Assembly (NCBI GenBank): GCA_963713955.1
Contig: OY970216.1
Coordinates: 8,075-72,074, forward strand
Length of the DNA stretch: 64,000 nucleotides
Reading direction: 5' to 3'
DNA from: an uncultured bacterium
Lineage (GTDB): Bacteria; Patescibacteriota; Minisyncoccia; UBA6257; GWB1-50-10
The notes beneath the pieces were generated by a model that was not told the origin of the DNA, did not search any database, and worked only from the letters and a program-made list of their open reading frames with translations. Both the position numbers and the translations under genes were made by a program. Below, in pieces: positions 9,918 to 54,390 of this stretch; position 1 is the first letter of the stretch; each line of letters begins with the position of its first letter.

Positions 9918-9923
9918 ACATAA

Positions 9924-11812: not shown

Positions 11813-11856
11813 TTGAAGATTGCCGAAGTTCTTATTGTTGATATAATACAAGCACC

Positions 11857-12132: not shown

Positions 12133-12151
12133 ATACAAGGGGAGGCAGATA

Positions 12152-12520: not shown

Positions 12521-12681
12521 GAGAATATTTTAACACTGATTTTAAATATTTTGGATACGCAATATAAAACTATGTCAGCCCCTCGGGAGACCTGCGGTTT
12601 CCCGAGGGACCAAAAAACCAAAACCCCGGCGCGAGGCCGGGGTATTTGGTGTCCGATTATGCGCTATCGGGAAACCGAGTG

Positions 12682-19817: not shown

Positions 19818-19946
19818 AGGAATCTTTACGAAATTACGAAAAGATACAAAAGTACGAAAACTGACGGCTCCTCCTACCTATACAGTATACCCCAATGCTA
19901 CTACCTTTTGGTAGGATTAGCAAGAGGACAAGTCGAGCGCTAATCT

Positions 19947-21230: not shown

Positions 21231-21463
21231 ACTATTATTGTTTAAATTCTGGAGCTCACTTCGTGGCGAACAAAATTTAACCACAATAATGAGCACCCCG
21301 CACCTTTTGTATACTATTTATTACGAATTAATTTCCAAGAAGTTACATTTTCCCTCCTCCAGAAGCCGTAAATCCTGTCCGCAGAAAAGGTGCGGGGTAA
21401 GGTTTGATGAACGAAATTCCTGCTCCCTCGGCAAGCTCAGGATTGAAATTTCGTATCAAGCCC

Positions 21464-22258
21464 TTACTTTATTTCGTACCTCAATGTTACAGAAACGTCC
21501 ACCTCTTCGGAACCGGCTTCTATGGTCGGCGCCAGAACGGCACCGGTCCCCGCCGAAGACAGGGTTTTCATTTCATTCATAGCGTACACCGGACCCGGGA
21601 AATTCTGATTCTCATCTATGGACAAGAGGCGACCCACCGAGAAACCGGCTTCCTTGGCAATTTGTTCGGCCTGCGCCTCGGCCTTCTGTATCGCCTGGCT
21701 CCTCGCTTCGGCTTGAACCGCTGTCGGATCGTCTATCGTGAAACTCAAAGACGAGACAGTATTCGCACCATTCTTGACCACGCCTGAAAGTATATCGCCG
21801 ATTTTCGAGAAATCCCTTGCTTTAACGTCGACGTTCTGCGTCACCGTGTAGCCGACTATGGTCGGCGGCGGACATACGCTGCTTGAAACCGTGCCGGAAT
21901 AAACTCCGCAGTTAGAATACTGGTATCTGGGCGAAATATTATAACCGCTCGTTTGGATATCCTTGGAATCGACGCCTTCTCCTTTCACGAAATCGATCGC
22001 TTTGTTCATGCCGTCGGTATTCTGGCTCTGGAGAGAAGCCAGATCTTTTCCGCCCTCCGTCACGATGCTGAAGGTGAACTCCGCGACATCGGGAACTCCG
22101 ATCGCCTTACCGTCAGACGTCACGCTGAAACTTCTGTATGACGACGGCTCAATAGAGTTCGAATAAGCTCCTACGAAAGATATGGCCGCATACGCCACGA
22201 CTAAAACTCCCACTATGATTGCTACATACAAGTAGCCCCTTATTTTTTCTGTGTTCAT
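21464..22258 (-). CDS. SIMPL/DUF541-family periplasmic protein
   Basis: N-terminal TM anchor, then a domain with the spacing typical of SIMPL (26 kDa periplasmic immunogenic protein) family proteins. Confidence 0.5.
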   Translation of the reverse strand: MNTEKIRGYLYVAIIVGVLVVAYAAISFVGAYSNSIEPSSYRSFSVTSDGKAIGVPDVAEFTFSIVTEGGKDLASLQSQNTDGMNKAIDFVKGEGVDSKDIQTSGYNISPRYQYSNCGVYSGTVSSSVCPPPTIVGYTVTQNVDVKARDFSKIGDILSGVVKNGANTVSSLSFTIDDPTAVQAEARSQAIQKAEAQAEQIAKEAGFSVGRLLSIDENQNFPGPVYAMNEMKTLSSAGTGAVLAPTIEAGSEEVDVSVTLRYEIK

Positions 22259-22317
22259 GCTTTTATGGTAACAAGTAACCAGCAACCAGTAAACAGAATT
22301 TATCCCCCGATTACCAG

Positions 22318-23664: not shown

Positions 23665-23669
23665 ATCAG

Positions 23670-24140
23670 TTACTTGTCGCCTGTTCCGCCTTCAGGCAAT
23701 TCCTTCACGCCGATTTTGCGAGTCAAAAACAGAATCAAAGCCAGACCGATCGCGCTCACGAAAGCGAACTCGATTAAACCGACGCCGCAGAGGACACCCA
23801 AGGCGGCTACCACCCAAACGGTCGCTGCGGTCGTCAAGCCCCGCACCTTTTGGCCCTGATGGAGGATAATCCCCGCCCCCAGAAAGCCGACGCCAATGAC
23901 GACATTCGCCACGACGGTCAGAAAGCCGCTATTCCGCGCCACGACATCCGCGAGGTTCCCCACCGCGACGATGTACGGGAGCGTAACGCCAACCATCGTG
24001 AAAATGGCCGCTCCGGAAGCAACCATCAAATTGGTCCTGACGCCCGCCTCCTTGCCGATGAGTTCGCGCTCGAGGCCGATGATCGCCCCGACGACGACCG
24101 CGGCGAGCAAACGGAGAAGCATTTCTTGAATAGTAAGCAT
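23670..24140 (-). CDS. MgtC/SapB-family membrane protein
   Basis: AIIGLERE...GVRTN motif of the MgtC family; 156-aa hydrophobic protein. Confidence 0.7.
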   Translation of the reverse strand: MLTIQEMLLRLLAAVVVGAIIGLERELIGKEAGVRTNLMVASGAAIFTMVGVTLPYIVAVGNLADVVARNSGFLTVVANVVIGVGFLGAGIILHQGQKVRGLTTAATVWVVAALGVLCGVGLIEFAFVSAIGLALILFLTRKIGVKELPEGGTGDK

Positions 24141-24149
24141 GAATCTTAT

Positions 24150-24566
24150 TTACTCCCTTTTCTTCCTCAGGAAAGGTTCCGCGACTCTATCCGCGAACAA
24201 GTTAACCATCGGCTCCATCTTTTCTGCTGTTTCCATATCACGGTCGTTCGCTATGATCTCGAGTAATACTCTCTTTATATTTCTACTACCCGACATATCC
24301 CGATCATCTGGCACCTTAAATTCCAAATCGTTGAAGAACCTTTTTAGGGATTTCTCCATGACTTGTAGCATCCATCTTACCTCCTTCGGACTCCATCCGA
24401 GCTTCTCTTCGAAAAACTGCGCTGGAGTCTTTCCTTCCTCCGGAGCCGAGAGAAAAGCGTTGAATCTTTCCTGTATCAGCCGCGCGTCCAATTTGTCCGC
24501 ATCGTGCAATATTTTCTCTGGACTTACTGGCGGCCAACCACCTTCTTCTTTGCTCATCATAGCCAT
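24150..24566 (-). CDS. hypothetical protein
   Basis: Start set at MAMMSKEE to avoid overlap with the upstream gene; no recognisable motifs. Confidence 0.3.
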   Translation of the reverse strand: MAMMSKEEGGWPPVSPEKILHDADKLDARLIQERFNAFLSAPEEGKTPAQFFEEKLGWSPKEVRWMLQVMEKSLKRFFNDLEFKVPDDRDMSGSRNIKRVLLEIIANDRDMETAEKMEPMVNLFADRVAEPFLRKKRE

Positions 24567-24591
24567 AGATAAATTATAACCCAAAATGGGA

Positions 24592-25167
24592 TCAATGATA
24601 ATCCGGGTTTTCCTCTTTGGCGCCCGCCGCGAAGTTGGCATACCGCGCGAGGGCGAAAAGCAGGCTCGAAAGGCGGTTCAAGTACTGGAGCGTTTCCGGG
24701 GAAAGCGGCCTTTTCTCGCTGAACTTCACGATCGACCGCTCAACTCTCCTCACAAGAGATCTCCCGTAATCCAACCGCGCGCCAACCTCGCTGCCACCCG
24801 GCATGATGAAATTTCTCAAGGGCGGCAGCTTCGCGTCCGCCCATTCGATAATTCTCTCGAGCCCCGCCGTCTTTTCGGCGGTAATCTTCTTGAATTTTTT
24901 TATTGAATACTCGAACCCCGCAGCGGCTACTTCAGCCTGAATGATGAAGATGTCTCTCTCAACCGATTTTAGAATTTCGTCCAAACTGAATCTCCCCAAC
25001 CTAAAATTATCTTTCTTTTCGAGCGACGCGCGGCAAACGCCGAGCCAGGAGTTGAACTCATCCAAGTTTCCCAAAACCTCGAAGAGGAGGTCACCTTTGG
25101 ATAAACGCTTGTTGCCGTGGAGGCTTTTTCCCCCGTCCCCGCGGCCGGTGTAAAAATTCGTTTTCAT
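24592..25167 (-). CDS. ATP:cob(I)alamin adenosyltransferase, PduO-type
   Basis: FYTGRGDGGKSL...LGNLDEFNSWLG is the PduO/MMAB family N-terminal signature. Confidence 0.7.
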   Translation of the reverse strand: MKTNFYTGRGDGGKSLHGNKRLSKGDLLFEVLGNLDEFNSWLGVCRASLEKKDNFRLGRFSLDEILKSVERDIFIIQAEVAAAGFEYSIKKFKKITAEKTAGLERIIEWADAKLPPLRNFIMPGGSEVGARLDYGRSLVRRVERSIVKFSEKRPLSPETLQYLNRLSSLLFALARYANFAAGAKEENPDYH

Positions 25168-25233
25168 GGCCTTACTCTAATTATACAACGGGCAGGAAAA
25201 CTTGCGACAAAAACAGCGGAACCGGCCAAATCG

Positions 25234-26244
25234 CTAGATGATATGATGCTGATTTGAAGGAAACGTTACCGCTTCTTTAATGTCATCAGTTCCCAAGATC
25301 CAGCGGAGAATCCGAGACATACCAAAGCCGCATCCGACATGAGGTACCATTTTATTCCTGGAGCACTCGATGTACCATCCGAAATCATCCATACTGCCCC
25401 CCATACTCAAGAGGCGCTTATACATTTTGGAGTTCGAGAGTCGGTATACCAGCGTATCGGGGTTGTCGATTCTTGCAGCAGACCCTACTGCTTCACCGGC
25501 AATCGGAAGAATGAGATCCGCCGATTGCACCAATCCGGGATTTTGAGGATCAGGCAGCATATTGAAGAACTTTTCAACCTCGATTTCCTTCCCGTGATCC
25601 CACAGCGGATCAGGATAGTGGGTGATAAAAACGGGATGATCGTCGAACTGAGCCACCAATTCCGCTTCCTTCTTGGAGTTGATGTCGTCTCCCCAAGTTA
25701 AGTGCAATCGCGCCATCGCTTCGTTGTAGGTTACCTTGGGAAAAACCGGCTGCGTTTTCGCAAGACGGGTGATGTGCGCTTCGCTCAACCCCAACTTTTT
25801 TTGTTCTTTTGCCGGGAGCGCGATCAAATCCCGGACAATCGAAGAGATGAATTTCTCGATGTGGCCGAGAAGCTCTTGAAAATTCCCCGTGAATTCTATC
25901 TCCATCATTTGGAATTCGATAAGGTGGCGGTTGTCGTTGCCTGGCTCGGCGCGGAAACTCGGACCCACGCAATACACCTTATTCAAATAAGGAACGAAGG
26001 CTTCCAAGTACAATTGGCCGGTTTGCGCGAGATAGGCTTGATGTTTCTCAGGATAGCCGAACCACTTAAAATCCTTGCTGGAAGAAACTTCAAAGAGCGT
26101 ATTCACGTTTTCGCAGGCTCCCGAAGCCCTGACGATACGGGGCGGGAAAATTTCGGTGAACCCTTCTTTTTCAAGGTGCGCTCGCCCCGATTTGAATACC
26201 TGAGCTTCCAAGAGCGCAGTGGATATTTTATTTTTTATATTCAT
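25234..26244 (-). CDS. class II aaRS catalytic-core paralog (AsnRS/AspRS-like; possibly archaeal-type asparagine synthetase A)
   Basis: Motif 2 FRAE and motif 3 GCGFGMSRIL are present, but the protein is only 336 aa and has no N-terminal anticodon-binding OB fold. Confidence 0.6.
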   Translation of the reverse strand: MNIKNKISTALLEAQVFKSGRAHLEKEGFTEIFPPRIVRASGACENVNTLFEVSSSKDFKWFGYPEKHQAYLAQTGQLYLEAFVPYLNKVYCVGPSFRAEPGNDNRHLIEFQMMEIEFTGNFQELLGHIEKFISSIVRDLIALPAKEQKKLGLSEAHITRLAKTQPVFPKVTYNEAMARLHLTWGDDINSKKEAELVAQFDDHPVFITHYPDPLWDHGKEIEVEKFFNMLPDPQNPGLVQSADLILPIAGEAVGSAARIDNPDTLVYRLSNSKMYKRLLSMGGSMDDFGWYIECSRNKMVPHVGCGFGMSRILRWILGTDDIKEAVTFPSNQHHII

Positions 26245-33579: not shown

Positions 33580-35139
33580 CTATCCCAAGAGTTCCGGTAG
33601 GAGGCTTTGGCCGGTCATTTCTTTCGGCTTCTGGATTTTCATGAGGTCCAATATCGTCGGGGCCACGTCGGAGAGCATCCCCACGACGGGAAGTGGTGCG
33701 AGATCCGGCAATGGGGACTTCCTTTTGAATCGACGGGCGATAAGGTAAAGGGGAACGGGGCTTGGATCGTGTTTCGTTTCCTTTTCCCCCGTTTTGAGAT
33801 CAAGGAGCACCTCGGCATTGCCGTGATCGGACGTTATGATGACCGTCTGATCCAGGGGGTATGCGCTTTCCACGAGCCTTTTCAACTCAGCATCGACGAC
33901 GCCGATGGCTTTCTTGGTCGCTTCGTAGTTCCCCGTGTGCGCAACCATGTCCGGATTGGCATAGTTCACGAGGATGAAATCGAACGTGCCTTCGCTCAAG
34001 GCGGCGAGAACGCGGTCGGTCACGGGCTTCGCCATCATCTCGGGATGCTCGTCGTACCGGACGGAGTTCCCGGAAGGTATGAGAATCCGATACTCGCCGG
34101 GAAACGGCTCCTCGCGGAGACCGTTGAAAAAATACGTGACGTGGGCGTATTTCTCCGTCTCGGCAACCCGGAGCTGCATTTTGCCGCTGTCCGACAAAAC
34201 CTGCCCGAGAGATTCTTCGACCACTTCGTTGGGGAAGGCGGTCGGCACGACGAACGATTGATCGTAGGTCGTCATGGTCGCGACAAAAAGGTTTTTGAAA
34301 CGTTTCACCGGGAAATTATTGAAATCGGGATTTACGAACGCGCCGACGATCTGCTTCATCCGGTCCTCACGGAAATTAAAGAAGAATACCGCATCATTGT
34401 CGCAAATCGGATGCGCGGTTGTCATCAGGGACGGCTCGATGTATTCATCGTCCAGATTTTTATCGTAAGCTCTCTTCGTAATTTCCTCGACCGTCCCCCG
34501 GGAATCGCTCTCGCCAACGAGAACCCGGTACGCTTTCTCCGTCCTATCCCAATGTTTGTCCCGATCCATCGCATAGTACCTCCCCGAAACGCTCGCGAGC
34601 CGCTCCGCGAGATCAAGGCCAGTGTCGGCAGCAAAGCGCAGAAGGAGTTTGCGGAAAGATCGGGGGGCGCTGTCACGACCGTCCGAAAAGAGGTGAAGGT
34701 AGAAATTCTCACATTTCGTTTCCTGAGCCATCTTTATCAGCGCTTCGAGATCTTCGAGAGAGGAATGCACGTTCGCTTCCGTCAAAAGCCCCACGAGGTG
34801 AAGGTTCGATTTGTTTTTCGCCGCCCAGTCGAAAGTTTTGAGAATGACTTCGTTTTTGAAAAAGCTTCCGTCCTTGAGAGCCAGGGAAATTTTCGGGAAA
34901 TGTTCCAAGAGAACTCGGCCGGCACCCAAGGTCATATGCCCCACCTCGCTGTTTCCCTCTTCGTCATACGGCAATCCGATGGCCATCCCCGAAGCCTGAA
35001 GAGCTCCCGCGGGAAAGTTCGCTTGGATGTAGGCGATAGTCTTCGGCTCCGCGCGGTAAATGGGGTTACTTTCGTCGAGCCGACCCATCCCCCAGCCATC
35101 CAAGACCACCAAAACAACTGTTTGCTTCATCAGGGTCAT
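33580..35139 (-). CDS. gpmI: 2,3-bisphosphoglycerate-independent phosphoglycerate mutase (iPGM)
   Basis: 519 aa; N-terminus VVLVVLDGWG and the metalloenzyme-superfamily motifs; ...ITSDHGNAE. Confidence 0.85.
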   Translation of the reverse strand: MTLMKQTVVLVVLDGWGMGRLDESNPIYRAEPKTIAYIQANFPAGALQASGMAIGLPYDEEGNSEVGHMTLGAGRVLLEHFPKISLALKDGSFFKNEVILKTFDWAAKNKSNLHLVGLLTEANVHSSLEDLEALIKMAQETKCENFYLHLFSDGRDSAPRSFRKLLLRFAADTGLDLAERLASVSGRYYAMDRDKHWDRTEKAYRVLVGESDSRGTVEEITKRAYDKNLDDEYIEPSLMTTAHPICDNDAVFFFNFREDRMKQIVGAFVNPDFNNFPVKRFKNLFVATMTTYDQSFVVPTAFPNEVVEESLGQVLSDSGKMQLRVAETEKYAHVTYFFNGLREEPFPGEYRILIPSGNSVRYDEHPEMMAKPVTDRVLAALSEGTFDFILVNYANPDMVAHTGNYEATKKAIGVVDAELKRLVESAYPLDQTVIITSDHGNAEVLLDLKTGEKETKHDPSPVPLYLIARRFKRKSPLPDLAPLPVVGMLSDVAPTILDLMKIQKPKEMTGQSLLPELLG

Positions 35140-35226
35140 TTTAAACCGGCAAGTTGTAAGTTACCAGTCGTTGGTTTATAATCAAGATACAAAAGTCGAT
35201 GAATTTCAACATTTACCTTTTGAAAC

Positions 35227-39590: not shown

Positions 39591-39919
39591 GTGAATATTG
39601 AGTATTTATACGGAGCAGTTAAGACCTATTTTACCCAAAATTTCTGATTTTGGATACCCCCGAGCCTAGTCAATCACCCCGTCAATCACGATTGACTACC
39701 CTCACCCCTCTTTCGTCCAGATTCCACCGGGCTTTCCTCGAAAACCTTGTCCCCGACAATACTCGCCTCCGCCCCTTACCGGTGCGTCGGCTCGTCTCCC
39801 GCAGAGGCCGCCCCCATGGGAAGGGTCGAAGGGAAGGAATGGGGGGCGGCCTCTGCTTCACGTCGCGCGTCAGAGATGCTCCCGAGGCCGGATTGGAAAA
39901 GGGAAGCAAAAAGGAGGAG
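39591..39919. repeat. left copy of the roughly 330-bp near-perfect inverted repeat (partner at 51477-51804)
   Basis: The reverse complement of 51477-51804 matches almost base for base (the identical 82-aa ORF artefact MDTPEPSQ... appears in both copies). It contains the nested motif TAGTCAATCACCCCGTCAATCACGATTGACTA. Confidence 0.8.
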
Positions 39920-39959: not shown

Positions 39960-40793
39960 ATGCCCCGATACCGCAAGAGATTCGAGAGGAGCAAGGAGCC
40001 GCCCAAGAATTTTCGCATCCAGACGCGCGACTACGGCCTCCTCGCTGACATAGCTGGCTATGGGGTGCTCTCGACCGAGCAGATTTTCGCGCTTCACAAG
40101 GGAGGAGAAAGGAATCTTCGGCGGAGATTGGCCGCGCTCTATCACTTGGGATACATCGAGAGACCGAAAGCGCAAAAACTGCTTCCTCCCGGGAGCTTCA
40201 TCATCTATTCCCTCGGCAGAAAAGGAGCGGAGCTCCTTCACCGCGAGGAGTCCGTCGGGAAAAGACACCGCGAGGTTTCCTTCCCTCATCTTTCCCACGC
40301 TTTGATGATCTCGAGGTTCCGGTCCATCCTCTCCCTCGCCTTGAAGGGCGGAGACAAGAAGATCGAGAAATGGATGCAGGGCAGGGAGTTGTACGATACG
40401 CTCTCCAAGCGGGAGAAGACCGACCTCGTTCCGGATGCTTTCTTCACGGTCGAGAGCAAAGAATACAAGTGGCCCTTCTTCCTCGAAGCGGACATGGGTA
40501 CGATGACGCGGACGAAGATGCTCGAAAAATACCGGACGTACTGGCGGTGGTGGCGGGAGAGGCGGCACGAGCATACGCTCGGCATACAGAGATTCCGCGT
40601 CCTCACGATCGCTCCCTCGGAGACGAGAACGGAGAATCTCGTGAAAGCCGCGAAGGAGGCCGACGACCGGAGAACCGGCAGCGACATGTTTCTCTTTTTA
40701 TCGGAGACTGCATACTCCTTGAAGGAGCCGGAAGAAATACTGAAGTCCGTCTGGCTTTCCGCGAAGGGCGGAAGGCACGGAATACTCGAATAA
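39960..40793 (+). CDS. replication-relaxation family protein (Replic_Relax-like, N-terminal HTH)
   Basis: RDYGLLADIAGYGVLSTEQIFALH matches the N-terminal motif of plasmid replication-relaxation proteins; 277 aa. Confidence 0.5.
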   Translation: MPRYRKRFERSKEPPKNFRIQTRDYGLLADIAGYGVLSTEQIFALHKGGERNLRRRLAALYHLGYIERPKAQKLLPPGSFIIYSLGRKGAELLHREESVGKRHREVSFPHLSHALMISRFRSILSLALKGGDKKIEKWMQGRELYDTLSKREKTDLVPDAFFTVESKEYKWPFFLEADMGTMTRTKMLEKYRTYWRWWRERRHEHTLGIQRFRVLTIAPSETRTENLVKAAKEADDRRTGSDMFLFLSETAYSLKEPEEILKSVWLSAKGGRHGILE

Positions 40794-42542: not shown

Positions 42543-43925
42543 ATGGCGGAACCGCGCATCTTCCGCCGCGAACCCAAGAGCGACGAACTCGCGCTGGGTT
42601 ACGCGTGGGGCGAGGACCAAAAAGGCGACCTCTGGCAATTGAAGGGCGTCGCGCAGGAAGACCGCGCCACCCATTTTTACGTGATCGGCGCATCCGGCAC
42701 TGGCAAGACGAAGTTCTTGGAATACATGATCGGGCAGGACATAGCGAACGGGGCGGGATTCGGTGTGATTGATCCCCATGGGGACTTGATCGAAGCCGTG
42801 AAAGAGCGGCTCGCGCTTTCCGGAGACGATCTCGAAAGCCGCGTCGTCCTTATCGACCCCACAGACAAGAAGAAGGTCGTCTCCTTCAATCCCCTCGAAC
42901 GGCTGGACGGTGTCTCCCCGGCGGAGCAGTCCGCCGAGCTCACGCTCGCGTTTAAAAAGATTTGGGCGGACGCGTGGGGCGCACGGATGGAGGACATTCT
43001 CCGCAATTCTTTCATCGCCTTGATTGAGAACGACCTCACCCTCGCGGAACTGCCCCTCCTGTTCGCCGATGCCGGACTCCGCGCGAAGCTCACGGCGAAC
43101 CTGAAAAACGAGACCGCGAGGGATTTCTTCCACAAGTTCGATTCGTGGAGCAAGACCTTGAAGAACGAGTGGACGGAATCCACCTTGAACAAGGTGAACG
43201 CCTTTTTGTCCGACGAGCGGGTGCGGGACATGTTTGTCTCGCCCAAAAGTTCCTTCAATCTGCGGGACGCGATTGATGCGGGAAAGATATTGTTGGTGAA
43301 ACTGGATAAGGGAAGATTGAAGGGCGCAAGCGACCTTCTGGGTTCGCTCATCTTGACGAAGCTCCAGATGGCCGCCTTCTCCCGGACGGACGTGAGAGAA
43401 TCCGAGCGCAAGCCCTTTTACTTGTACATCGACGAGTTCCAGAACTTCGCGACCGAGAGCTTCACGGACGTCCTCACGGAGGCGAGGAAATACAAGCTGT
43501 CACTTACGCTCGTGAACCAGAACTTGGGGCAGCTTCCCTCCGAACTCCGGGCTTCCATCCTCACGAACTGCGGGATACAGGCGTGTTTCCGCCTTTCCCG
43601 CTTCGATGCGGAGCTTCTCGCCAAAGAAGCGTTCGGCGGGGTGGCCGACGCGACCCCGCAATGGGAAAAAAAATTCCAGTTGCTCCAAGCCCTCCCTAGG
43701 CAGGTGTGCCTCGTGAAGAACAAGGCGGCGGGCGGGATTGTTCTTATCCGCGTGCCGGACATAGGAGACGGGATGGACGAGCGGGAGCTTGAGGCCGCCT
43801 TGCGGGAAGCAGGGATCGGAGAGAAATACCTCCGCAAACGGGACGAGATTAACAAGGAGTATCACAGAAGGCACGAGGCCTTAACGAAAACCGACGAGCC
43901 GGACGGGTTCAAGGAGAAAAGATAG
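42543..43925 (+). CDS. P-loop ATPase, TraD/TrwB/VirD4-like or HerA/DUF87-like (candidate DNA translocase / coupling protein)
   Basis: Walker A VIGASGTGKT; DPHGD motif; Walker B YLYIDEFQNF. Paralog of 50122-51420. Confidence 0.55.
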   Translation: MAEPRIFRREPKSDELALGYAWGEDQKGDLWQLKGVAQEDRATHFYVIGASGTGKTKFLEYMIGQDIANGAGFGVIDPHGDLIEAVKERLALSGDDLESRVVLIDPTDKKKVVSFNPLERLDGVSPAEQSAELTLAFKKIWADAWGARMEDILRNSFIALIENDLTLAELPLLFADAGLRAKLTANLKNETARDFFHKFDSWSKTLKNEWTESTLNKVNAFLSDERVRDMFVSPKSSFNLRDAIDAGKILLVKLDKGRLKGASDLLGSLILTKLQMAAFSRTDVRESERKPFYLYIDEFQNFATESFTDVLTEARKYKLSLTLVNQNLGQLPSELRASILTNCGIQACFRLSRFDAELLAKEAFGGVADATPQWEKKFQLLQALPRQVCLVKNKAAGGIVLIRVPDIGDGMDERELEAALREAGIGEKYLRKRDEINKEYHRRHEALTKTDEPDGFKEKR

Positions 43926-43940
43926 TATTTTTCTACACTG

Positions 43941-43969
43941 TTTGACATTATTGCTATATTATGGTATCA
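43941..43969 (+). promoter_or_regulatory. sigma70-like promoter upstream of the DGR target gene
   Basis: TTGACA, a 17-nt spacer, then TATCAT. AAGGAGG lies 5 nt before the ATG at 44038. Confidence 0.4.
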
Positions 43970-44037
43970 TATCAACATTCCTGAAACTTAGGAACGCATC
44001 TAAAAAACTTCATATTCACTAACCAAGAAAGGAGGCA

Positions 44038-44919
44038 ATGACGATGAATACTACATCGATCATGCCAATGACAGAAGGTCAAGAAAAGCAACTGAGTCGC
44101 GTCGTAATGGAGGACGAACTCTTTACACCGAAACCCACAAACGACGAAGCTCAGTGTCTTCTAAAGCACGGCAATATACTGCAAACGGCAGTCCGAATTT
44201 CCCGCAAGGAGATATTCGTCAAGTATCTCTACGCAGATGAGGAAAAATCGTCCGACTACACCTATCCCAAGGAATACAAGCGAAAATCAATCCGAGAGCA
44301 AATCGATATTCTTCTGGAGTGCTTCCCCGGATTGAACGCAACATGGGCTTTAATGAAGGGAGAAGCTTGGTACGACAGCCTGAAGAACTTGCCGGATTGG
44401 ATTGAAGGCCCGCTCGTCTATGTATGGTGGGAAATGTTCGGCAACTACAACGCCGCAACGGAACAGGTGCTCTCCGCTCTGGGGAAGAAGTACCAAAACT
44501 TCGTGAACTACCGGAACGGCCAGCTTGGACCAGAATACCTGCAACAGTCGAAAAAGACGACCGGTCTCGAAGCAAAGATTAAGAAGGACCAGCCTGGCGA
44601 TCTCATCATCGTCCCGAGTCAAGCCGGATTGCGCTGGAGGGGAAAATCTGTCCGTCGCGGCAGAGTCCTCTATGATCAGAACGAATTCGGTTCGGGAAGC
44701 GTCGCCGAAGGATGCCGAGTGCTGACCCATAATCGGTTCGTCCAATGGGAGCAACTGCACGTTGATTGCGGAGGAGACGAATACGCTCCTGAGGCCGATC
44801 GGGTTTTCTCGCACGCTCCGCACCTCTACTTCCTCGATAGCGAGATCGGGTTCGTCACGTACTGGATTGACTATGCCCATGGGCACTTCGGTTCGGCTTC
44901 CTCCCTTCTCCCGCAGTAA
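44038..44919 (+). CDS. DGR target (variable) protein; the C-terminal approximately 43 aa are encoded by the variable repeat
   Basis: The 3' end of the ORF (44787-44917) is the VR homologous to the TR. The gene has a strong RBS and promoter and is followed by a hairpin terminator. No signal peptide is evident. Confidence 0.7.
   Translation: MTMNTTSIMPMTEGQEKQLSRVVMEDELFTPKPTNDEAQCLLKHGNILQTAVRISRKEIFVKYLYADEEKSSDYTYPKEYKRKSIREQIDILLECFPGLNATWALMKGEAWYDSLKNLPDWIEGPLVYVWWEMFGNYNAATEQVLSALGKKYQNFVNYRNGQLGPEYLQQSKKTTGLEAKIKKDQPGDLIIVPSQAGLRWRGKSVRRGRVLYDQNEFGSGSVAEGCRVLTHNRFVQWEQLHVDCGGDEYAPEADRVFSHAPHLYFLDSEIGFVTYWIDYAHGHFGSASSLLPQ
44787..44917 (+). repeat. DGR variable repeat (VR)
   Basis: 131-bp alignment with TR 45299-45430: 17 mismatches, all at positions where the TR has A. 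The final approximately 30 nt are identical and GC-rich (IMH-like), ending at the target stop codon. Confidence 0.85.
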
Positions 44920-44992
44920 TCGAACATTGCACCTCGGACACTTGAACCTTTTGATGTCTTGTCCTTCGTTCCTTTCGTCCGCGTTATTTTTG

Positions 44993-45034
44993 AGAGGTTA
45001 TCCACACCATTGTGGGTAACCTCTTTATTTTTTA
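44993..45034 (+). terminator. hairpin plus T-run downstream of the VR/target gene
   Basis: AGAGGTTATCCACA-CCAT-TGTGGGTAACCTCT (14-bp stem with 1 mismatch) then TTTATTTTTTA. The stem contains a perfect TTATCCACA. Confidence 0.55.
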
Positions 45035-45298
45035 TAATCATGAATGAGACTAGGTTCATGAATGGCCGTCCACGGATTGCCGTCACCGAACTCCCTCTTC
45101 AATGAAGAGAAAAACAACCGGAATCTTAGCGACCACGGTTTCTAAGAGCGCGTTGTATTGAGGAGATTACTGCTTGTCCCCGTCTAGCGCAGGTTCCCGT
45201 TCGGGATGCTGCCGAATAAAATTCAGGATTGAGAGGATATAAGCTCCCCTTGAGCGGTAAACCTCGATTTCCAGTGATACGGACGGATGGGGGCAATG

Positions 45299-45430
45299 AT
45301 CCTGAGGCCGATCAAGTTTTCTCGCACGCTCCGAACCTCAACTTCAACGATAGCAAGATCAAGTTCAACACGAACTGGATTGACAATGCCAATGAGAACT
45401 TCGGTTCGGCTTCCTCCCTTCTCCCGAAGT
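45299..45430 (+). repeat. DGR template repeat (TR)
   Basis: Adenine-rich AAC/AAT/AAG-containing copy of the VR; the ORF-track entries 45229-45483(+) and 45223-45474(-) merely overlap it and are not believed to be genes. Confidence 0.85.
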
Positions 45431-45446
45431 CGCTCCTCAAGGAGGC

Positions 45447-45477
45447 AGAATGCCCGCGATTTATACGCGGGCATTCT
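45447..45477. terminator. strong hairpin between the TR and the avd stop (bidirectional terminator or TR-RNA 3' structure)
   Basis: AGAATGCCCGCG-ATTTATA-CGCGGGCATTCT, a 12-bp perfect stem. Confidence 0.5.
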
Positions 45478-45479
45478 CC

Positions 45480-45830
45480 TTAATTTTCTTTAGCCGATCT
45501 TATCCATCCGCCTAACATCCGGCCGATTTCATCCACGGAAGATTCGAGCGCCACATACTTTTTATTGTCTATGGTTTTCACTTCCTTCATGAGACGAAGA
45601 AAAACGCGCAGGAGATTAAGCTTGACGCTCGTCTTGTCTAAAACCGGCACTTTCTCCGATTTATAGAGTTTGCTGGCCGTAAGTATCCCCTCAAGAATTT
45701 CGAGTGTTAGTTCTTCCGATCTCTGCCAGATGGCGTACCGGTCTTGCTTGGGAACAATTGTGCGATAACCATAAAATGTTTTGTATAAGTCATAAGTTTT
45801 CTTGAATATGGGTATGTCAAAATCATCCAT
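45480..45830 (-). CDS. avd: Avd-like accessory variability determinant (four-helix-bundle, 23S rRNA-IVS protein family)
   Basis: 116 aa; C-terminal EIGRMLGGWIRSAKEN closely resembles the Bordetella phage bAvd C-terminus EVGRILGSWIARVNRK; it lies between the TR and the RT. Confidence 0.7.
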   Translation of the reverse strand: MDDFDIPIFKKTYDLYKTFYGYRTIVPKQDRYAIWQRSEELTLEILEGILTASKLYKSEKVPVLDKTSVKLNLLRVFLRLMKEVKTIDNKKYVALESSVDEIGRMLGGWIRSAKEN

Positions 45831-45844
45831 AAGTTTTACGCCAC

Positions 45845-46870
45845 ATGAAAACCTGCAAAAACATTTTTGAAAAGATAATCTCGCCAGAAAATCTTTTTTT
45901 GGCTTGGGACGCGTTCAAAGGCGACAAGCGGAATAAACCTGACGTTCTCCGGTTTGAATGGAATCTGGAACAGAACATTTTCCGGTTGCACGGAGATTTG
46001 AAAGATAGAACCTACCAGCATGGCCCCTATGCGAGCTTTTACATCAACGATCCGAAGCAGCGCCACATTCATAAGGCGACGGTTCGAGACAGGATTCTGC
46101 ATCACGCGGTTTTCTCGGTTATAAATCCAGTCTTCGAGCCGACCTTCATTCCGACTTCTTTTTCTTGTCGCATCGGATACGGCACTCATAAGGGTGTCGA
46201 GACTCTGGAAGAGATGATAAGAAGGGTAAGTAGGAATAATACGGCTCCCTGTTTTGTCTTGAAATGCGATGTTCAGAAATTTTTTGCGAGCGTAAGCCAC
46301 GAAATTCTGCTCTCCATTCTGGAAAAGAGAATTAAAGACGATGATGCAATGTGGCTTATGGGAAGCATCGTTAAAAGCTATGAGAGCGTGTCCAGGCGAG
46401 GCATCCCCATAGGGAATTTGACCTCCCAGCTCTTTGCCAACGTCTACATGAACGAACTTGATCAGTTTATGAAGCACGTGTTGAAGGTAAAATATTACAT
46501 TCGCTACACCGACGACTTCGCCGTAGTCGCTGGAGATAAAAAATATTTAGAAGAACTCCTGCCGCTTATATCCAAATTTCTTGAAAATAAACTCGCTCTC
46601 AAATTACATCCTAATAAAACCATATTTTTATCAATATGTCAAGGCGTAGATTTCCTCGGATACGTGATTTTCCCAAAACATAGACTTATCCGGTTACAGA
46701 CAAAGCATCGGATGTTTAAGAAATTGGAAAAACTGATGGAAGAATACAAAGCTGGAAATATCACCAAATTAAACTTCGAGCAGTCTCTCCAGTCTTATCT
46801 GGGTGTCTTATCTCATGCGGATACCCACACGATACGGGAAGAACTGTTGAACAAGTTCTGGATTTCTTAA
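45845..46870 (+). CDS. DGR-type reverse transcriptase
   Basis: RT motifs including IPIGNLTSQLFANVY (the DGR-specific I/LGxxxSQ in place of the group II QGxxxSP) and YIRYTDDFAV (YxDD); 341 aa with no maturase or endonuclease domains. Confidence 0.9.
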   Translation: MKTCKNIFEKIISPENLFLAWDAFKGDKRNKPDVLRFEWNLEQNIFRLHGDLKDRTYQHGPYASFYINDPKQRHIHKATVRDRILHHAVFSVINPVFEPTFIPTSFSCRIGYGTHKGVETLEEMIRRVSRNNTAPCFVLKCDVQKFFASVSHEILLSILEKRIKDDDAMWLMGSIVKSYESVSRRGIPIGNLTSQLFANVYMNELDQFMKHVLKVKYYIRYTDDFAVVAGDKKYLEELLPLISKFLENKLALKLHPNKTIFLSICQGVDFLGYVIFPKHRLIRLQTKHRMFKKLEKLMEEYKAGNITKLNFEQSLQSYLGVLSHADTHTIREELLNKFWIS

Positions 46871-46895
46871 CCTACGCTCCGCCTTTTTACCGACA

Positions 46896-47261
46896 TTACG
46901 TCTCTTCCTTTTCACGCTTCGGCGTCTCGTGCGGTATCTTTGCCGTATTGATTCCGATCTTCGCCATTCTTCCGCCTCCCGAGAAGAGGAGGAAGACAAA
47001 AAGATATTGGAGAACGATGTCCCCGAGCTTCCCGATGCTTTGGGAGACGACCGGAGGCACGCCGACCGATGTTTCTCCGAGATGGACGTTATTCACCGAA
47101 ACCGTGCTTTGCGCCGCGTCTCCTTTCCCTTCAAGAATGGAGGGGATATTGTTTCCGTGGAACACGCTGAACCCGTACCAGACGCCAAACCCGATTATCG
47201 CCGCTCCTCCTATAATGAGGATTAAGCTTAGGATGACGTAGTATTTCTCCTTGTGCTTCAT
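46896..47261 (-). CDS. small membrane protein, hypothetical
   Basis: N-terminal TM (YYVILSLILIIGGAAIIGFGVWYGF) and a C-terminal hydrophobic segment. Confidence 0.35.
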   Translation of the reverse strand: MKHKEKYYVILSLILIIGGAAIIGFGVWYGFSVFHGNNIPSILEGKGDAAQSTVSVNNVHLGETSVGVPPVVSQSIGKLGDIVLQYLFVFLLFSGGGRMAKIGINTAKIPHETPKREKEET

Positions 47262-47377
47262 TGAATTTTGATTATCCCGGCGCTATACAGGCCGAATTCG
47301 GCGAGCCAGAGCGCGGCGGATACCAGCACCCAGAACCACCAACGCAGATAGAGTTTGACTTTGGGTTTTTCGTTCAT
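47258..47377 (-). CDS. 39-aa single-TM micro-protein (not in the ORF track; ATGA-coupled to the downstream gene)
   Basis: MNEKPKVKLYLRWWFWVLVSAALWLAEFGLYSAGIIKIQ. Confidence 0.25.
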   Translation of the reverse strand: MNEKPKVKLYLRWWFWVLVSAALWLAEFGLYSAGIIKIQ

Positions 47378-50121: not shown

Positions 50122-51420
50122 GTGCGCCCCTTTTTGTATTTTCTGATGGACGACATCCTCCCCATCGGCAGGACGACCTCCCATTCGAGCGGGCTTGTCT
50201 TCGGAATCCGGACGAGAGACCGGCGACACCACATGTATGTCGTGGGGCAGACCGGCACGGGAAAATCGACTTTGCTCAAGAATATGGCGATAACGGACAT
50301 CCGGGGCGGGCGCGGCTGCGCCGTGATAGACCCGCACGGGGAACTCGTCGAGGACATCCTTAACTTCATTCCTTCTAAGAGGGCGAACGAAGTCGTGTAT
50401 TTCAATCCCTCGGATGTCGAGAATCCCATCGGCTTGAACATTCTCGAAGCGAGGGACGAGGAGGAAAAGCAACTGGTCGCCTCGTCCTTGATCTCGGTAT
50501 TCAAACACCTATGGAAGGGGTTCTGGGGGCCTCGGCTGGAACACGTCTTCCATAACGCCATATTAGCTCTTATGGATACGCCGGGGAGCACCCTCCTCGG
50601 CGTTTATCGTATGCTCGCGGACGACGATTACCGCCGCCTCGTCGTTTCCCACGCGAAAGACCCCATAGTTAGGTTGTTCTGGGAAAAGGACTTCGACGAA
50701 TATCCGCCTCAATTCCGCAAAGAGGTCGCCTCTCCTATCCAGAACAAGATCGGGCAATTGCTCACGAACACGCCCTTGCGGAATATCGTGGGACAGACGA
50801 CGAGCACGATTGATCTCAAATACATCATGGATAACCGGAGAGTCCTTCTCGTGAACCTCGCGAAAGGCAGAATCGGAGAAGACAAGGCGAACCTTCTCGG
50901 GTCCGTCCTCGTTACCAAGCTCTATTTGGCCGCTTTGGAGAGGCAGGCGATCCCGGAGGAGGAACGCAAGGACTTCTACCTCTACGTTGACGAGTTCCAG
51001 AACTTCTCGACGGACGTGTTTCCTTCGATACTCTCGGAGGCGAGGAAATACCGGCTGAACCTCATCTTGGCTCACCAGTATCTCCACCAGTTGACCGACG
51101 AGGTGCGGCACGCCGTCTTCGGAAACGTGGGCACTTTGGTCGCTTTCCGCGTGGGGAGCATAGACGCGGAGGAACTCGCAAGAGAGTTCCTGCCCTCGTT
51201 CGGGAGGAGCGACCTCGAATGCGAGGACAACTACCACACTTATATTAAATTGATGATCGACGGCAAGCGTTCGCTTCCCTTCTCGGCGGAAACGCTCCCG
51301 CCCCTCTGCCTTATGGGCGACGAGGCGAAGAAAGACATTCTGATTCAGGTTTCACGGGAGCGTTTCGCTTCAAAAAGATGCGAGATCGAATCCAAAATCG
51401 AAAAATGGATTGGCAGGTGA
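50122..51420 (+). CDS. P-loop ATPase, paralog of 42543-43925 (TraD/VirD4- or HerA-like)
   Basis: VVGQTGTGKST, DPHGE, YLYVDEFQNF; roughly 45 percent identical to the first ATPase. Probably a GTG start. Confidence 0.55.
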   Translation: MRPFLYFLMDDILPIGRTTSHSSGLVFGIRTRDRRHHMYVVGQTGTGKSTLLKNMAITDIRGGRGCAVIDPHGELVEDILNFIPSKRANEVVYFNPSDVENPIGLNILEARDEEEKQLVASSLISVFKHLWKGFWGPRLEHVFHNAILALMDTPGSTLLGVYRMLADDDYRRLVVSHAKDPIVRLFWEKDFDEYPPQFRKEVASPIQNKIGQLLTNTPLRNIVGQTTSTIDLKYIMDNRRVLLVNLAKGRIGEDKANLLGSVLVTKLYLAALERQAIPEEERKDFYLYVDEFQNFSTDVFPSILSEARKYRLNLILAHQYLHQLTDEVRHAVFGNVGTLVAFRVGSIDAEELAREFLPSFGRSDLECEDNYHTYIKLMIDGKRSLPFSAETLPPLCLMGDEAKKDILIQVSRERFASKRCEIESKIEKWIGR

Positions 51421-51476: not shown

Positions 51477-51804
51477 TCCTCCCTTTTTCCTTCCCTTTTC
51501 CTTCCGGCCTCGGGAGCATCTCTGACGCGCGACGTGAAGCAGAGGCCGCCCCCCATTCCTTCCCTTCGACCCTTCCCATGGGGGCGGCCTCTGCGGGAGA
51601 CGAGCCGACGCACCGGTAAGGGGCGGAGGCGAGTATTGTCGGGGACAAGGTTTTCGAGGAAAGCCCGGTGGAATCTGGACGAAAGAGGGGTGAGGGTAGT
51701 CAATCGTGATTGACGGGGTGATTGACTAGGCTCGGGGGTATCCAAAATCAGAAATTTTGGGTAAAATAGGTCTTAACTGCTCCGTATAAATACTCAAGTT
51801 TCAC
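51477..51804. repeat. right copy of the roughly 330-bp inverted repeat
   Basis: Reverse complement of 39591-39919. Confidence 0.8.
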
Positions 51805-51986
51805 ACAAAGGTTATTTTCCCCAAAATTTTCACGGGCTTCGCGGAGCGAAGCATAAGGTTTGATGGGGCTAAATACGATGCGACGGTTTTTTAGAGAGAG
51901 GTTCGAGAGTTAAGGGTATAACACTTGCCCCACACCACCCGTGCGCGTGTTATGAATCTTGCTGATTTGATAATCAGCTACTCCCT

Positions 51987-52532: not shown

Positions 52533-52760
52533 TTATAAAAGGTCTTTAGGTCTTATACCTAACGCTTTTGCAATCTTTTCTATGTTCTTGAGTGTTGGGT
52601 TTCTTTCGCCGCGCTCTATCTGACTGATATAGGTTGAATGAACGCCCAAACTTCTCGCAATATCTCCTTGCGATAATTGCTTCTTGAGGCGGATGGCCTT
52701 GATCTGCTTTCTAACTCTTGTGGATATGTCCGTGTTCGCCATTGTTTTCATTATTATCAT
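52533..52760 (-). CDS. XRE-family (Cro/cI-type) HTH transcriptional regulator
   Basis: LSQGDIARSLGVHSTYISQIERGERNPTLKNIEKIAKALG. Confidence 0.75.
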   Translation of the reverse strand: MIIMKTMANTDISTRVRKQIKAIRLKKQLSQGDIARSLGVHSTYISQIERGERNPTLKNIEKIAKALGIRPKDLL

Positions 52761-52812
52761 AACAGTTGCCGTGCTATTGCTCTATGGAACGCAAATGCTC
52801 TATAATAGAACC

Positions 52813-54390
52813 ATGTCTACTTACTTCCTCTACGCCCGCAAATCGACCGACGTTGAAGACAAGCAAGTCCGGTCGATTGACGATCAGCTTTCAGTGCTTC
52901 GTACCCTTGCAAAAGACGAGGGACTACACATCGTTTCCGAGTTTGTGGAGAAGCAGTCCGCCAAGATGCCCGGTCGCCCCGTATTCAATAACATGCTTTC
53001 CCGCATTGAGAAAGGAGAGGCGCAAGGCATCGTCTGTTGGAAACTAGATCGGCTTGCCAGAAATCCGGCGGACGGCGGCACGATACAATGGATGCTCCAG
53101 CGGGGCATCATCCAACATATCCAAACCTACGAAAAGAGTTATAAGACAGCCGACAACACGCTATTGATGAGCGTGGAGTTCGGGATGGCGAACCAGTTCA
53201 TTCTTGACTTGGCTGCGAACACCAAGCGCGGCCTCTATGAGAAAGTGAAGCGTGGCGAATATCCTTCGCTTGCCCCTATCGGATACTTGAACGACCGGGT
53301 GAGGAAAACCGTCGTTGTGGACAGGGCGACGGCGAAGATCGTCCGTGCCGCGTTTGAACTCTATGCCGAAGGCAACTCACGATTGGAAGACATATCCGCA
53401 TTTTTTGCCAAACATCACATCTATTCCGAGAACGGCAAACCTTTGAAACGCGACCGGATAACCTACATCCTCTCGAATCCCTTTTATATCGGTTTCTTCC
53501 GCTACGCAAAAGAGCTTCACGAGGGAAAGCACAAGCCCCTCATTTCCAAGACTCTTTTCGACAAGGTGCAAGCCGTCTTAAAAGGGAGGGGCAGACCTCA
53601 TCACAAATTGCAGAACGAGCCGAAACCTCTTTGCGGACTGCTCTACTGCGCCGAGTGCGGATGCGCGATCACCGGAGAGGAAAAGGTGAAGCACCAGAAG
53701 AACGGCAACGTCCACACCTACCGCTATTATCGTTGCACGAAAAAGAAAGGTGCCTGTTCCCAGCCAAACGTTCGAGAGGAAAACCTTACTTTGCAACTAT
53801 CCGAGGCTATCAGACCATTCGCCCTTCCGTACGAATGGGCGGCGGAGCTTTCAAAGAAAGCTGATATGGATGAGCAAGTTACCCTCACATCTTCCGCCGC
53901 CCAGAGCCAAACGATACGGGACGAGATAACGGCCGTTTCCCAAAAGATCAAGCGACTTCACGCGATGTATCTAGACCAAGACATTGAACGGGAAAGCTTC
54001 CTTGAGGAGAAGGCGAATCTGCTTTCCCAGAAGAAGTCGCTCACGGAGAAAATGGCTGATGTTTCAAAGGGGGTGATCGCTTGGCTCGAACCGATGCGGG
54101 AATGGATAAAAGACGCGTCAAATCTGAACGATTTCGACGAAACCGCCTCTCTTTCCCTCACTAAGTCGTATACTCTTAAAATTTTCGGCTCGAACCTCTC
54201 TCTAAAAAACCGTCGCATCGTATTTAGCCCCATCAAACCTTATGCTTCGCTCCGCGAAGCCCGTGAAAATTTTGGGGAAAATAACCTTTGTGTGAAACTT
54301 GAGCGGGTAAGGGGAGTCGAACCCCTCTCATCAGCTTGGAAAGCTGAGGTAATGCCGATATACGATACCCGCCAACATCTTTTATCTTAA
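52813..54390 (+). CDS. large serine recombinase (resolvase catalytic domain, recombinase domain, zinc ribbon)
   Basis: YARKSTDVEDKQVRSIDDQ (catalytic Ser), APIGYLNDR, CAECGC...C zinc ribbon. Start set at MSTYFLY. The last approximately 30 codons are antisense to tRNA-Gly. Confidence 0.8.
   Translation: MSTYFLYARKSTDVEDKQVRSIDDQLSVLRTLAKDEGLHIVSEFVEKQSAKMPGRPVFNNMLSRIEKGEAQGIVCWKLDRLARNPADGGTIQWMLQRGIIQHIQTYEKSYKTADNTLLMSVEFGMANQFILDLAANTKRGLYEKVKRGEYPSLAPIGYLNDRVRKTVVVDRATAKIVRAAFELYAEGNSRLEDISAFFAKHHIYSENGKPLKRDRITYILSNPFYIGFFRYAKELHEGKHKPLISKTLFDKVQAVLKGRGRPHHKLQNEPKPLCGLLYCAECGCAITGEEKVKHQKNGNVHTYRYYRCTKKKGACSQPNVREENLTLQLSEAIRPFALPYEWAAELSKKADMDEQVTLTSSAAQSQTIRDEITAVSQKIKRLHAMYLDQDIERESFLEEKANLLSQKKSLTEKMADVSKGVIAWLEPMREWIKDASNLNDFDETASLSLTKSYTLKIFGSNLSLKNRRIVFSPIKPYASLREARENFGENNLCVKLERVRGVEPLSSAWKAEVMPIYDTRQHLLS
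54302..54372 (-). tRNA. tRNA-Gly (anticodon TCC)
   Basis: GCGGGTA-TC-GTA-TATCGGCAT-TAC-C-TCAGC-TTTCCAA-GCTGA-TGAG-AGGGGTTCGACTCCCCT-TACCCGC-T. The acceptor, anticodon and T stems are perfect; the D-stem has 3 bp. Confidence 0.7.

Follow-up and report, generated by a model that had tools for sequence, protein, structure and literature searches.

The diversity-generating retroelement (DGR) at positions 44038-46870 of the DNA analysed here, a 64,000-nt stretch of contig OY970216.1 (hereafter the window) from an uncultured bacterium of the Patescibacteriota (assembly GCA_963713955.1), is very probably intact, complete and currently active. Its template repeat (TR) looks to be embedded in a self-contained RNA gene of ~435 nt, the transcript of which is predicted from the features of the locus. 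A short strand in the structured leader of this RNA is complementary to the end of the TR with its flank and to the 3′ junction of the variable repeat (VR), and this complementarity covaries across ~35 related loci. DGRs are enriched in bacteria of the Candidate Phyla Radiation (CPR). The cassette has the order [target-VR]-[TR]-(avd reverse)-[reverse transcriptase], with the TR and the reverse transcriptase (RT) gene on the plus strand and avd on the minus strand, which is architecture B3 as defined by Wu et al. (2017, PMC5758913). Since this layout is matched, the locus is at the gene level an ordinary CPR DGR, a further member of the known CPR B3 kind. For comparison, 53 loci were fetched by RT relatedness; nearly all come from metagenome-assembled genomes, and most are labelled Patescibacteria.

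Components and activity of the cassette

A sequence-only reading of this DNA had proposed a complete DGR with four hallmarks (a target gene ending in a VR, a TR, Avd and a DGR-type RT). Every component lies at or very near the place proposed for it (Table 1); the VR/TR mismatches are confined to TR adenines, the RT falls with DGR enzymes and not with group II intron, retron or Abi RTs, and the 116-aa protein matches Avd. All open reading frames (ORFs) of the cassette are intact. The target ORF stands as proposed, but its start probably does not: an ATG at 44044, 8 nt after GGAGG, is the likely start and the one used in public records.

The VR, at the 3′ end of the coding target, and the non-coding TR, which shares the strand of the RT gene and lies 415 nt upstream of its start, align as direct repeats without a gap over 131 nt, and the VR does form the last 43 codons of the target gene. 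The TR had been given as 132 bp from 45299; it is 131 nt long and begins at 45300. When mismatches are tabulated by TR base, all 17 fall at adenines (7 A>G, 5 A>C and 5 A>T), although adenines make up only 34 of the 131 nt (chance probability ~1e-10). In the frame of the target, 33 of the 34 adenines occupy codon positions 1 or 2, and the codons concerned include six AAC and two AAT. The earlier attribution of these mismatches to mutagenic retrohoming holds for all but one. At the 3′-most mismatch (TR 45427 A, VR 44914 C) all loci of the subfamily show this A/C pair; it is therefore a fixed junction difference of the initiation of mutagenic homing (IMH)/IMH* type, which leaves 16 mismatches attributable to mutagenesis. 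At this 3′ boundary the VR reads GCAGT and the TR GAAGT; the other subfamily shows a G/C difference instead. No additional VR or TR copy was found elsewhere in the 64-kb window.

The RT carries KCDVQKFF at residue 140 and, as had been read from its ORF, IGNLTSQ (189) and YTDD (221). In a phmmer search of the PDB its top match is bRT of Bordetella phage BPP-1 (chain 8ub7_A, 100% identical to BPP-1 brt), at 161 bits (E 2.9e-46), ahead of the best group II intron RT (87 bits) and a retron-type RT (85 bits). The alignment keeps bRT residues K29, F66, R74, I76, I181, G182 and Q187, which contact template and dNTP (bioRxiv 10.1101/2023.10.23.563531). By these matches the enzyme belongs to the DGR clade and is closest to bRT. 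The top-scoring NCBIfam model is that of the group II RT/maturase (TIGR04416), which is the expected outcome because NCBIfam returned no DGR-RT model among the RT matches; its 149 bits fall short of a cut-off of 300. The best retron model reaches 62.7 bits against a cut-off of 235, and every model for group II, retron, Abi and DRT enzymes scores far under its cut-off, the last three still further below than the first. Rfam 15 gave no match to a group II intron RNA or a retron non-coding RNA (ncRNA) in 43900-47300 at E<=1. With a bRT score nearly double that of the best group II RT, and with Avd and an adenine-specific TR/VR pair adjoining the gene, it is hardly credible that this is a group II intron, retron or defence (Abi/DRT) RT beside a coincidental repeat.

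Two curated profiles identify the 116-aa protein as Avd: the NCBIfam DGR-Avd equivalog NF033474 (80.7 bits, cut-off 80) and Pfam bAvd PF22296 (63.7 bits, cut-off 40). A family profile built from 26 orthologues has bAvd (4dwl) as its top solved structure, over the full length (E 0.035), and the C-terminal resemblance pointed out before is real, EIGRMLGGWI aligning with EVGRILGSWI of bAvd. What the sequence-only reading missed is the inversion of the gene: avd is encoded on the minus strand, with its ATG facing that of the RT head-to-head at a distance of 14 nt. With only 14 nt between these divergent starts, the promoter and ribosome-binding region of each gene must lie within the other gene. 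A sigma-70-like site (TTGGGA-18-TAAAAT, 45748-45777, plus strand) is found inside the avd coding region, 68 nt upstream of the RT start; neither the avd start nor the RT start has an obvious Shine-Dalgarno sequence.

The DGR has been recently active, as seen from VR-restricted variation at adenine sites between two assemblies. A variant in the target cluster (P0059) is identical up to the VR and diverges thereafter; its contig (L054), from a different assembly, aligns to window positions 34038-55019 at 99.94% identity. At the level of assembly consensus, for two assemblies of the same population, there are 12 differences in 21 kb, of which 11 lie inside the 131-nt VR and the other is a single-nucleotide polymorphism (SNP) at 39243. 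The VR differences comprise 10 substitutions opposite TR adenines and a 1-nt deletion beside a TR AAC, while the TRs are identical. Divergence is thus ~8% in the VR and 0.005% elsewhere (1 SNP in 20.8 kb), and the VR-specific heterogeneity at TR adenines that had been anticipated is borne out between these two consensus sequences. Two aspects of the same comparison count against a simple history of activity. The VR of L054 (10750-10879 of that contig) is frameshifted by the 1-nt deletion, giving a 326-aa target product, and the two VR alleles have 8 substitutions in common while differing at 10 adenine sites, which is not expected from one complete VR replacement. Such a mosaic could arise if the assembly consensus merged a mixed population, or through patchy repair or selection. 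The frameshift, together with degenerate relatives in which RT and avd are truncated (L063 and L068), would also suit an inactive relic, a decayed DGR with ancient VR/TR differences; with every ORF intact, the catalytic motifs present and all 11 VR differences at or beside TR adenines against a single SNP outside, such a relic is very improbable.

The target has 57 homologues, and every one with a named source is from CPR/Patescibacteria. All have a hypervariable C-terminus that ends in a conserved GSASGFLPQ. The target itself has no Pfam, NCBIfam or PDB sequence match, a Pfam scan of 36 family members gave no consistent family, and a Foldseek search of the PDB returned nothing at E<1; the C-terminal half may adopt a C-type-lectin-like fold. 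The N-terminus shows no signal peptide or hydrophobic segment when read from sequence; the target is a cellular, CPR-specific and apparently cytoplasmic protein. A ubiquitin-like domain was considered for residues 146-215, which match ubiquitin-derived Affilin chains (phmmer E 0.003), and was set aside as chance since the 36-member profile found nothing in the PDB at E<=1. Three contigs (L056, L057 and L058, carrying P0037, P0038 and P0025, respectively) encode members of the target family in housekeeping surroundings, and neither RT nor Avd occurs within 8 kb of them; they may be remote targets of a DGR elsewhere, or paralogues that are not diversified.

A structured leader RNA and its complementarity to the variable repeat

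Between the target terminator and the TR lie ~250-255 nt that are strongly conserved among loci whose RTs share only 55-67% identity. From an alignment of 24 loci RNAalifold predicts 50 base pairs in seven helices (P1-P7), and 42 of the pairs show compensatory changes. In this alignment 96.0% of cells are paired. The corresponding share is 71.0% in shuffled controls, none of the 500 attaining the real value, and does not exceed 50.8% with slid partners. Covariation scores 0.776 in the real alignment, 0.287 after shuffling and no more than 0.181 after sliding. G-U pairs are frequent and assign the RNA to the plus strand. This leader is a fifth component of the cassette, absent from the sequence-only reading. 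An early minimum-free-energy fold of 45230-45500, which paired 45273-45292 with the TR 3′ end, was superseded by the covariation-supported P4.

A covariance model of the leader finds a single copy in the window (45057-45302, 210 bits) and one in each of more than 40 related loci; there the copy invariably shares the strand of the RT and stops where the TR begins. Three metagenomic contigs found by a leader motif alone contain the full leader, with avd (−) and RT (+) beside it in all three. The 19-base motif is unspecific by itself, as these were the only real leaders among its 12 metagenome matches; it had no match in IMG/VR. No Rfam 15 family, RT-n included, matched in 43900-47300 even at E<=1.

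Upstream of the leader, the −10 box in the window has a counterpart (TAnnnT) at the equivalent distance in 22 of 24 related loci, which would place transcription initiation near 45046. Downstream of the TR, a stem of at least 8 bp (median 12) occupies the same place in 31 of 38 loci, in unrelated sequences. By analogy with BPP-1, in which the Avd-binding stem-loop has the corresponding position (bioRxiv 10.1101/2023.10.23.563531), the stem-loop at 45447-45477 is probably an Avd-binding stem-loop, a terminator of the DGR RNA, or both. A role as terminator of avd on the minus strand was rejected: its 5′ side is A-rich in only 2 of 38 loci, whereas a U-rich plus-strand tail is present in 16 of 38, so that, if a terminator, it serves plus-strand RNA. 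Taken together, the −10 box, leader, TR and stem-loop make the TR appear to lie inside a self-contained RNA gene.

The leader as an upstream RNA of CPR DGRs is apparently undescribed; we found no description in the literature searched, a search that did not extend to Paul et al. 2017. Wu et al. (PMC5758913) describe the TR as ‘adjacent to RT’ and describe no RNA domain. The survey by Handa et al. was limited to the 40 nt upstream of the TR, and the pairing strand of the leader, ~130-140 nt upstream of the TR, is outside that range.

The proposed primer or guide strand is an unpaired segment of the leader directly 5′ of P4. Its 3′ 9 nt, GAUUACUGC (45165-45173), are the perfect complement of the VR junction GCAGTAATC (44913-44921), and the match extends 4 nt past the TR/VR homology. 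On the plus strand GCAGTAATC occurs nowhere else in the 64 kb, the other match being the leader itself on the opposite strand. The same strand can also pair with the TR. Here UUGAGGAG, the 5′ portion of the strand, base-pairs with the flank on the 3′ side of the TR, CUCCUCAA (45433-45440). The 3′ portion (ACUGC) does so with GAAGU at the TR end (45426-45430), apart from one G·A mismatch.

Both pairings track the cognate partner across loci. When the match is anchored at the nucleotide directly preceding P4, 25 of 35 leader-VR pairs have 6 nt or more of perfect complementarity at the VR junction. This anchored complement has a mean length of 6.3 nt for cognate and 2.8 nt for non-cognate pairs, and the leader/TR-flank duplex (21 loci) has a mean of −14.4 kcal/mol for cognate and −10.6 kcal/mol for non-cognate combinations (permutation p<2e-4 in both cases, values that overstate independence because the loci are phylogenetically related). 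There are 16 distinct guide hexamers, each matched by its own VR, and in the loci with two VRs (L055, L019 and L003) the guide complement is present at both. L055 has the leader sequence GAUCACUGC, and both of its VRs read GCAGTGAT(C), a compensatory U>C / A>G pair of changes relative to the window. The TR end, by contrast with the VR, keeps one fixed guide mismatch in each subfamily (GAAGU where the VR has GCAGU, and GAACUU where the VR has GAAGUU).

Proposed mechanism and alternatives

We lean, by a narrow measure, towards viewing the DGR RNA of the window as a circular permutation of that of BPP-1. The BPP-1 RNA runs from stop strand b (the avd 3′ end) through the TR, the Avd-binding stem-loop and the primer to stop strand a, a small stem-loop, a single-stranded ‘thumb ring’ and the RT-binding stem-loop (bioRxiv 10.1101/2023.10.23.563531). 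In the window the order is P1-P3, primer, P4 5′ strand, P5 stem-loop, a conserved single strand (CGAAUAAAAUUCA), the long P6/P7 stem-loop, P4 3′ strand, TR and stem-loop. P5, the conserved single strand and P6/P7 would stand for the small stem-loop, the thumb ring and the RT-binding stem-loop, and the post-TR hairpin would correspond to the Avd-binding stem-loop. The fuller proposal has in our judgement an even chance of being right: that CPR B3 DGRs use a circularly permuted RNA in which the primer and the RT-docking elements reside in the ~250-nt upstream leader and the 3′ segment of the primer guides the product to the VR junction.

In such a system the DGR RNA would be transcribed from its own promoter, would end at or after the hairpin and would be bound by RT-Avd. 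The 3′ nucleotide of the primer, C45173, would pair with G45426 of the TR, and cDNA synthesis would start opposite C45425 as the first templated base. RT-Avd would then copy the TR RNA, misincorporating opposite adenines, until it reached the 3′ strand of P4, which would act like the Bordetella ‘cPRT Stop’ duplex; a stop at this point would explain why the TR/VR homology begins 3 nt after P4. The resulting RNA-cDNA chimera, 5′-GAUUACUGC-d(GGGAGAAGG...), would be colinear with the VR antisense strand across the junction. Because the primer is perfect to the VR junction and mismatched to the TR end, the RNA-linked cDNA would anneal without interruption to the VR sense strand over the VR 3′ boundary, and the TR would escape for want of a guide match at its end and flank. 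Host repair would complete the replacement of the VR by the cDNA, rewriting the last ~40 codons of the 291-aa target.

The principle of primer-IMH pairing is not new, having been proposed with the IMH/IMH* logic for the Bordetella phage (Naorem et al. 2017, PMC5703328). In the BPP-1 locus (L071), nucleotides 48-56 of the spacer RNA (Sp), AGGTGGTCA, are a perfect 9-nt complement of VR118-126, TGACCACCT, anchored at the priming A56, and the TR at the matching positions, TGCCCATCA, is not perfectly complementary to them. The two DGRs (mtd-VR, avd, TR, Sp and brt in BPP-1) thus share a primer that is perfect to the VR IMH and imperfect to the TR IMH*, as well as homologous RT and Avd, adenine-specific mutagenesis and a stem-loop just 3′ of the TR. 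The BPP-1 avd:Sp ‘cPRT Stop’ and P4 of the window each join the nucleotides after the primer to sequence just 5′ of the TR. They differ in that the primer and the putative RT-docking elements are upstream of the TR, in a 250-nt leader, in the window and downstream of it, in a 140-nt spacer, in BPP-1. Likewise, the TR/VR homology ends 5 nt past the presumed initiation site in the window and 17 nt past it in BPP-1, and therefore the complement of the window primer runs into the VR flank. The window also lacks the GC-rich cruciform that follows the VR in BPP-1, and its target is cellular and apparently cytoplasmic, whereas that of BPP-1 is a phage tail fibre.

Two other RNAs invite comparison. 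The RT-10 motif, the structured Sp RNA of BPP-1-like DGRs, is likewise a conserved structured RNA beside the TR and a proposed primer (Weinberg et al. 2017, PMC5737381). It differs from the leader in sequence, in structure and in the side of the TR on which it lies. Retron msr-msd is one ncRNA with the primer upstream of the template, and its priming nucleotide terminates a duplex through which the primer reaches the template 3′ end. The RNA of the window resembles it in having the primer upstream of the template within a single ncRNA; unlike retrons, the window has an RT of a different clade, a template that copies a gene segment, an Avd, and a product that homes into a VR instead of accumulating as multicopy single-stranded DNA.

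Apart from the shared ancestry of the loci, several points weigh against the proposed RNA and its mechanism. The start site and 3′ end of the RNA and the priming nucleotide are all inferences at this locus, and the mapping of P4-P7 and the hairpin onto the Bordetella elements is by position and analogy only. The stem after the TR has a U-rich plus-strand tail in 16 of 38 loci and looks like a plain terminator in many. The VR is also not followed by a GC-rich inverted repeat just past the IMH, the first hairpin being the terminator-like stem at 44992-45025, ~75 nt downstream. That repeat is required for efficient BPP-1 homing and is found in 34% of DGRs (Wu et al. 2017, PMC5758913); it is not a universal defining trait of DGRs.

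An unlikely but still serious alternative to a guide is that leader-VR complementarity is a passive footprint, left when primer nucleotides are copied into the target at homing and without any role in target choice. The match does vary in length from 5 to 9 nt among loci and continues past the TR/VR homology into the VR flank, and the RNA part of linear RNA-cDNA molecules primed from a 3′-OH, as described by Naorem et al. (PMC5703328), could be copied. Yet the matched stretch in the window covers the conserved Gln codon and the stop codon of the target, both under protein-level constraint, and the fixed primer mismatch retained by the TR of every subfamily suggests that self-targeting is selected against; a footprint and a guide are, moreover, mutually compatible. 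We consider it less likely again that the leader, while a real structured RNA, is a regulatory 5′ element (riboswitch-like, or acting on the stability or level of the TR RNA) instead of a primer and docking site for RT-Avd. The primer would in that case come from another place, such as RNA antisense to avd and downstream of the hairpin, as in Bordetella, in which the primer is downstream of the TR (bioRxiv 10.1101/2023.10.23.563531), and read-through into antisense avd is possible given that only 16 of 38 loci have the U-rich tail. A purely regulatory element does not predict 3′-anchored complementarity that covaries with the TR end and VR junction across ~35 loci. The geometry of primer, helix and TR start mirrors the primer/cPRT-Stop arrangement of Bordetella, and downstream of the hairpin lies the best-conserved portion of avd, with no independent RNA signal.

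Related loci and genomic context

The arrangement in the window is the rule among its relatives. Where avd was found, it lies on the opposite strand to the RT, head-to-head, in ~44 of 45 loci, and, of the 38 loci in which a TR/VR pair was detected, 36 have the TR on the RT strand just past the avd 3′ end. Architecture B3, TR-(avd)-RT, makes up 90% of the CPR DGR set of Wu et al. 2017 (PMC5758913). The CPR/DPANN B3 DGRs of that study have the same gene order, orientations and host group, as well as targets without a recognisable Pfam domain, and show no gene-level difference from the window; a leader RNA, a leader promoter and guide-VR pairing were not found described in the literature searched.

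Some relatives depart from this pattern. Two loci hold two DGR cassettes each: L004 (1238-3204 and 4299-6329) and L040 (2831-3536 and 5323-6723). The second cassette of L004 has avd on the plus strand, the canonical orientation, and an RT only 35% identical, and therefore two DGR types coexist in one CPR genome. In the metagenomic loci L063 (13345-14759) and L068 (987-2452) a full leader is followed by an RT match beginning at residue 79 and an avd match beginning at residue 15, with overlapping coordinates; they look like a deletion derivative in which both 5′ ends were lost. L055 (10001-13959) is a close relative of the cassette, with 85% nucleotide identity in the target gene and two tandem targets that both have VRs. 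It stands in a non-mobile, housekeeping context (IF-2, RbfA and tRNA synthetases), and therefore the cassette moves between genomic contexts.

The cassette had been described as cargo on an integrated element. This is plausible here, as a relaxase, coupling proteins and a recombinase flank it (Table 1), but it is not a property of the family, given the housekeeping contexts of L055 and of L056-L058. The two coupling-protein-like genes share a 53-nt stretch at 81% identity (43404-43456 and 50962-51014) and are therefore paralogues in the same putative mobile element. An inverted-repeat pair of 328 nt (39591-39918 and 51477-51804; 97% identity, 11.6 kb between arms) encloses the relaxase gene, the first coupling-protein gene, the DGR and the second coupling-protein gene. 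A second pair, of 115 nt and 100% identity (51793-51907 and 54189-54303), encloses a 179-aa ORF and the large serine recombinase gene; its left arm overlaps the right arm of the longer pair by 12 nt, and its right arm abuts a tRNA-Gly gene (54301-54372, −). These pairs suggest invertible segments or element ends. Elsewhere in the window, the G+C content is 37-48% over positions 1-12000 and 50-56% over 12000-26000, and two pairs of long antisense ORFs (17187-19817 (−) with 17298-19943 (+), and 33580-35139 (−) with 33607-35181 (+)) are probably an artefact of composition.

Table 1. Features of the DGR cassette, its proposed RNA gene and the flanking region (window coordinates; T4SS, type IV secretion system)
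Feature	Position	Strand	Remarks
Replic_Relax relaxase	39960-40793		flanks the DGR
T4SS coupling-protein-like gene	42543-43925		directly upstream of the cassette
Promoter-like site of the target gene	43942-43970	+	TTGACA-17-TATCAT, TG-extended; 11/12 consensus matches, by consensus comparison only
Target (variable protein) gene	44038-44919	+	293 aa over the full ORF; 291 aa from the likely ATG at 44044
VR	44787-44917	+	final 43 codons of the target gene
VR 3′ junction, IMH-like	44913-44921	+	GCAGTAATC; last Gln codon, stop codon and 2 more nt
Intrinsic-terminator-like hairpin with T-run	44992-45025	+	past the target gene; 15-bp stem, then TATTTTTTAT
−10 box of the proposed DGR RNA gene	45033-45038	+	TATAAT, read from sequence; TTGTGG 17 nt upstream
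Structured RNA leader	45057-45299	+	covarying helices P1-P7
P1	45062-70/45075-83	+	CACG loop cap
P2	45095-100/45104-109	+	identified by eye
P3	45124-33/45138-47	+	CACG loop cap
Proposed primer/guide strand	45158-45173	+	UUGAGGAGAUUACUGC; unpaired, directly 5′ of P4
P4	45174-85/45285-96	+	3′ strand ends 3 nt before the TR
P5	45189-96/45205-12	+	leader helix
P6	45226-36/45262-72	+	leader helix
P7	45243-46/45252-55	+	leader helix
TR	45300-45430	+	131 nt; begins 3 nt past the P4 3′ strand
TR 3′ flank	45432-45440	+	GCUCCUCAA; predicted to pair with leader 45158-45167 (duplex prediction and covariation, 21 loci)
Post-TR stem-loop	45447-45477	+	12-bp stem; starts 16 nt after the TR, ends 2 nt before the avd stop codon
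avd	45480-45830	−	116 aa; NCBIfam and Pfam profile matches
DGR RT	45845-46870	+	341 aa; best PDB match BPP-1 bRT
Second T4SS coupling-protein-like gene	50122-51420		flanks the DGR
Large serine recombinase	52684-54390		flanks the DGR

With two assemblies that are identical outside the VR but for one SNP, this locus is a clean natural example of ongoing diversification. At ~435 nt of RNA and proteins of 116 and 341 aa, it is also a compact system for engineering and, if the proposed mechanism is true, such systems would be retargetable through the TR and 6-9 guide nucleotides. The complementarity of the leader bears on the least understood step of DGR function, namely the way in which cDNA reaches and replaces the VR but leaves the TR untouched. 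Primer-IMH pairing had been proposed from the sequence of a single Bordetella phage; here it holds over dozens of diverged loci, with the primer on the opposite side of the template. If borne out, this would be the first comparative evidence that target choice and directionality in DGRs are set by RNA-DNA pairing of a cDNA-linked primer with its target.

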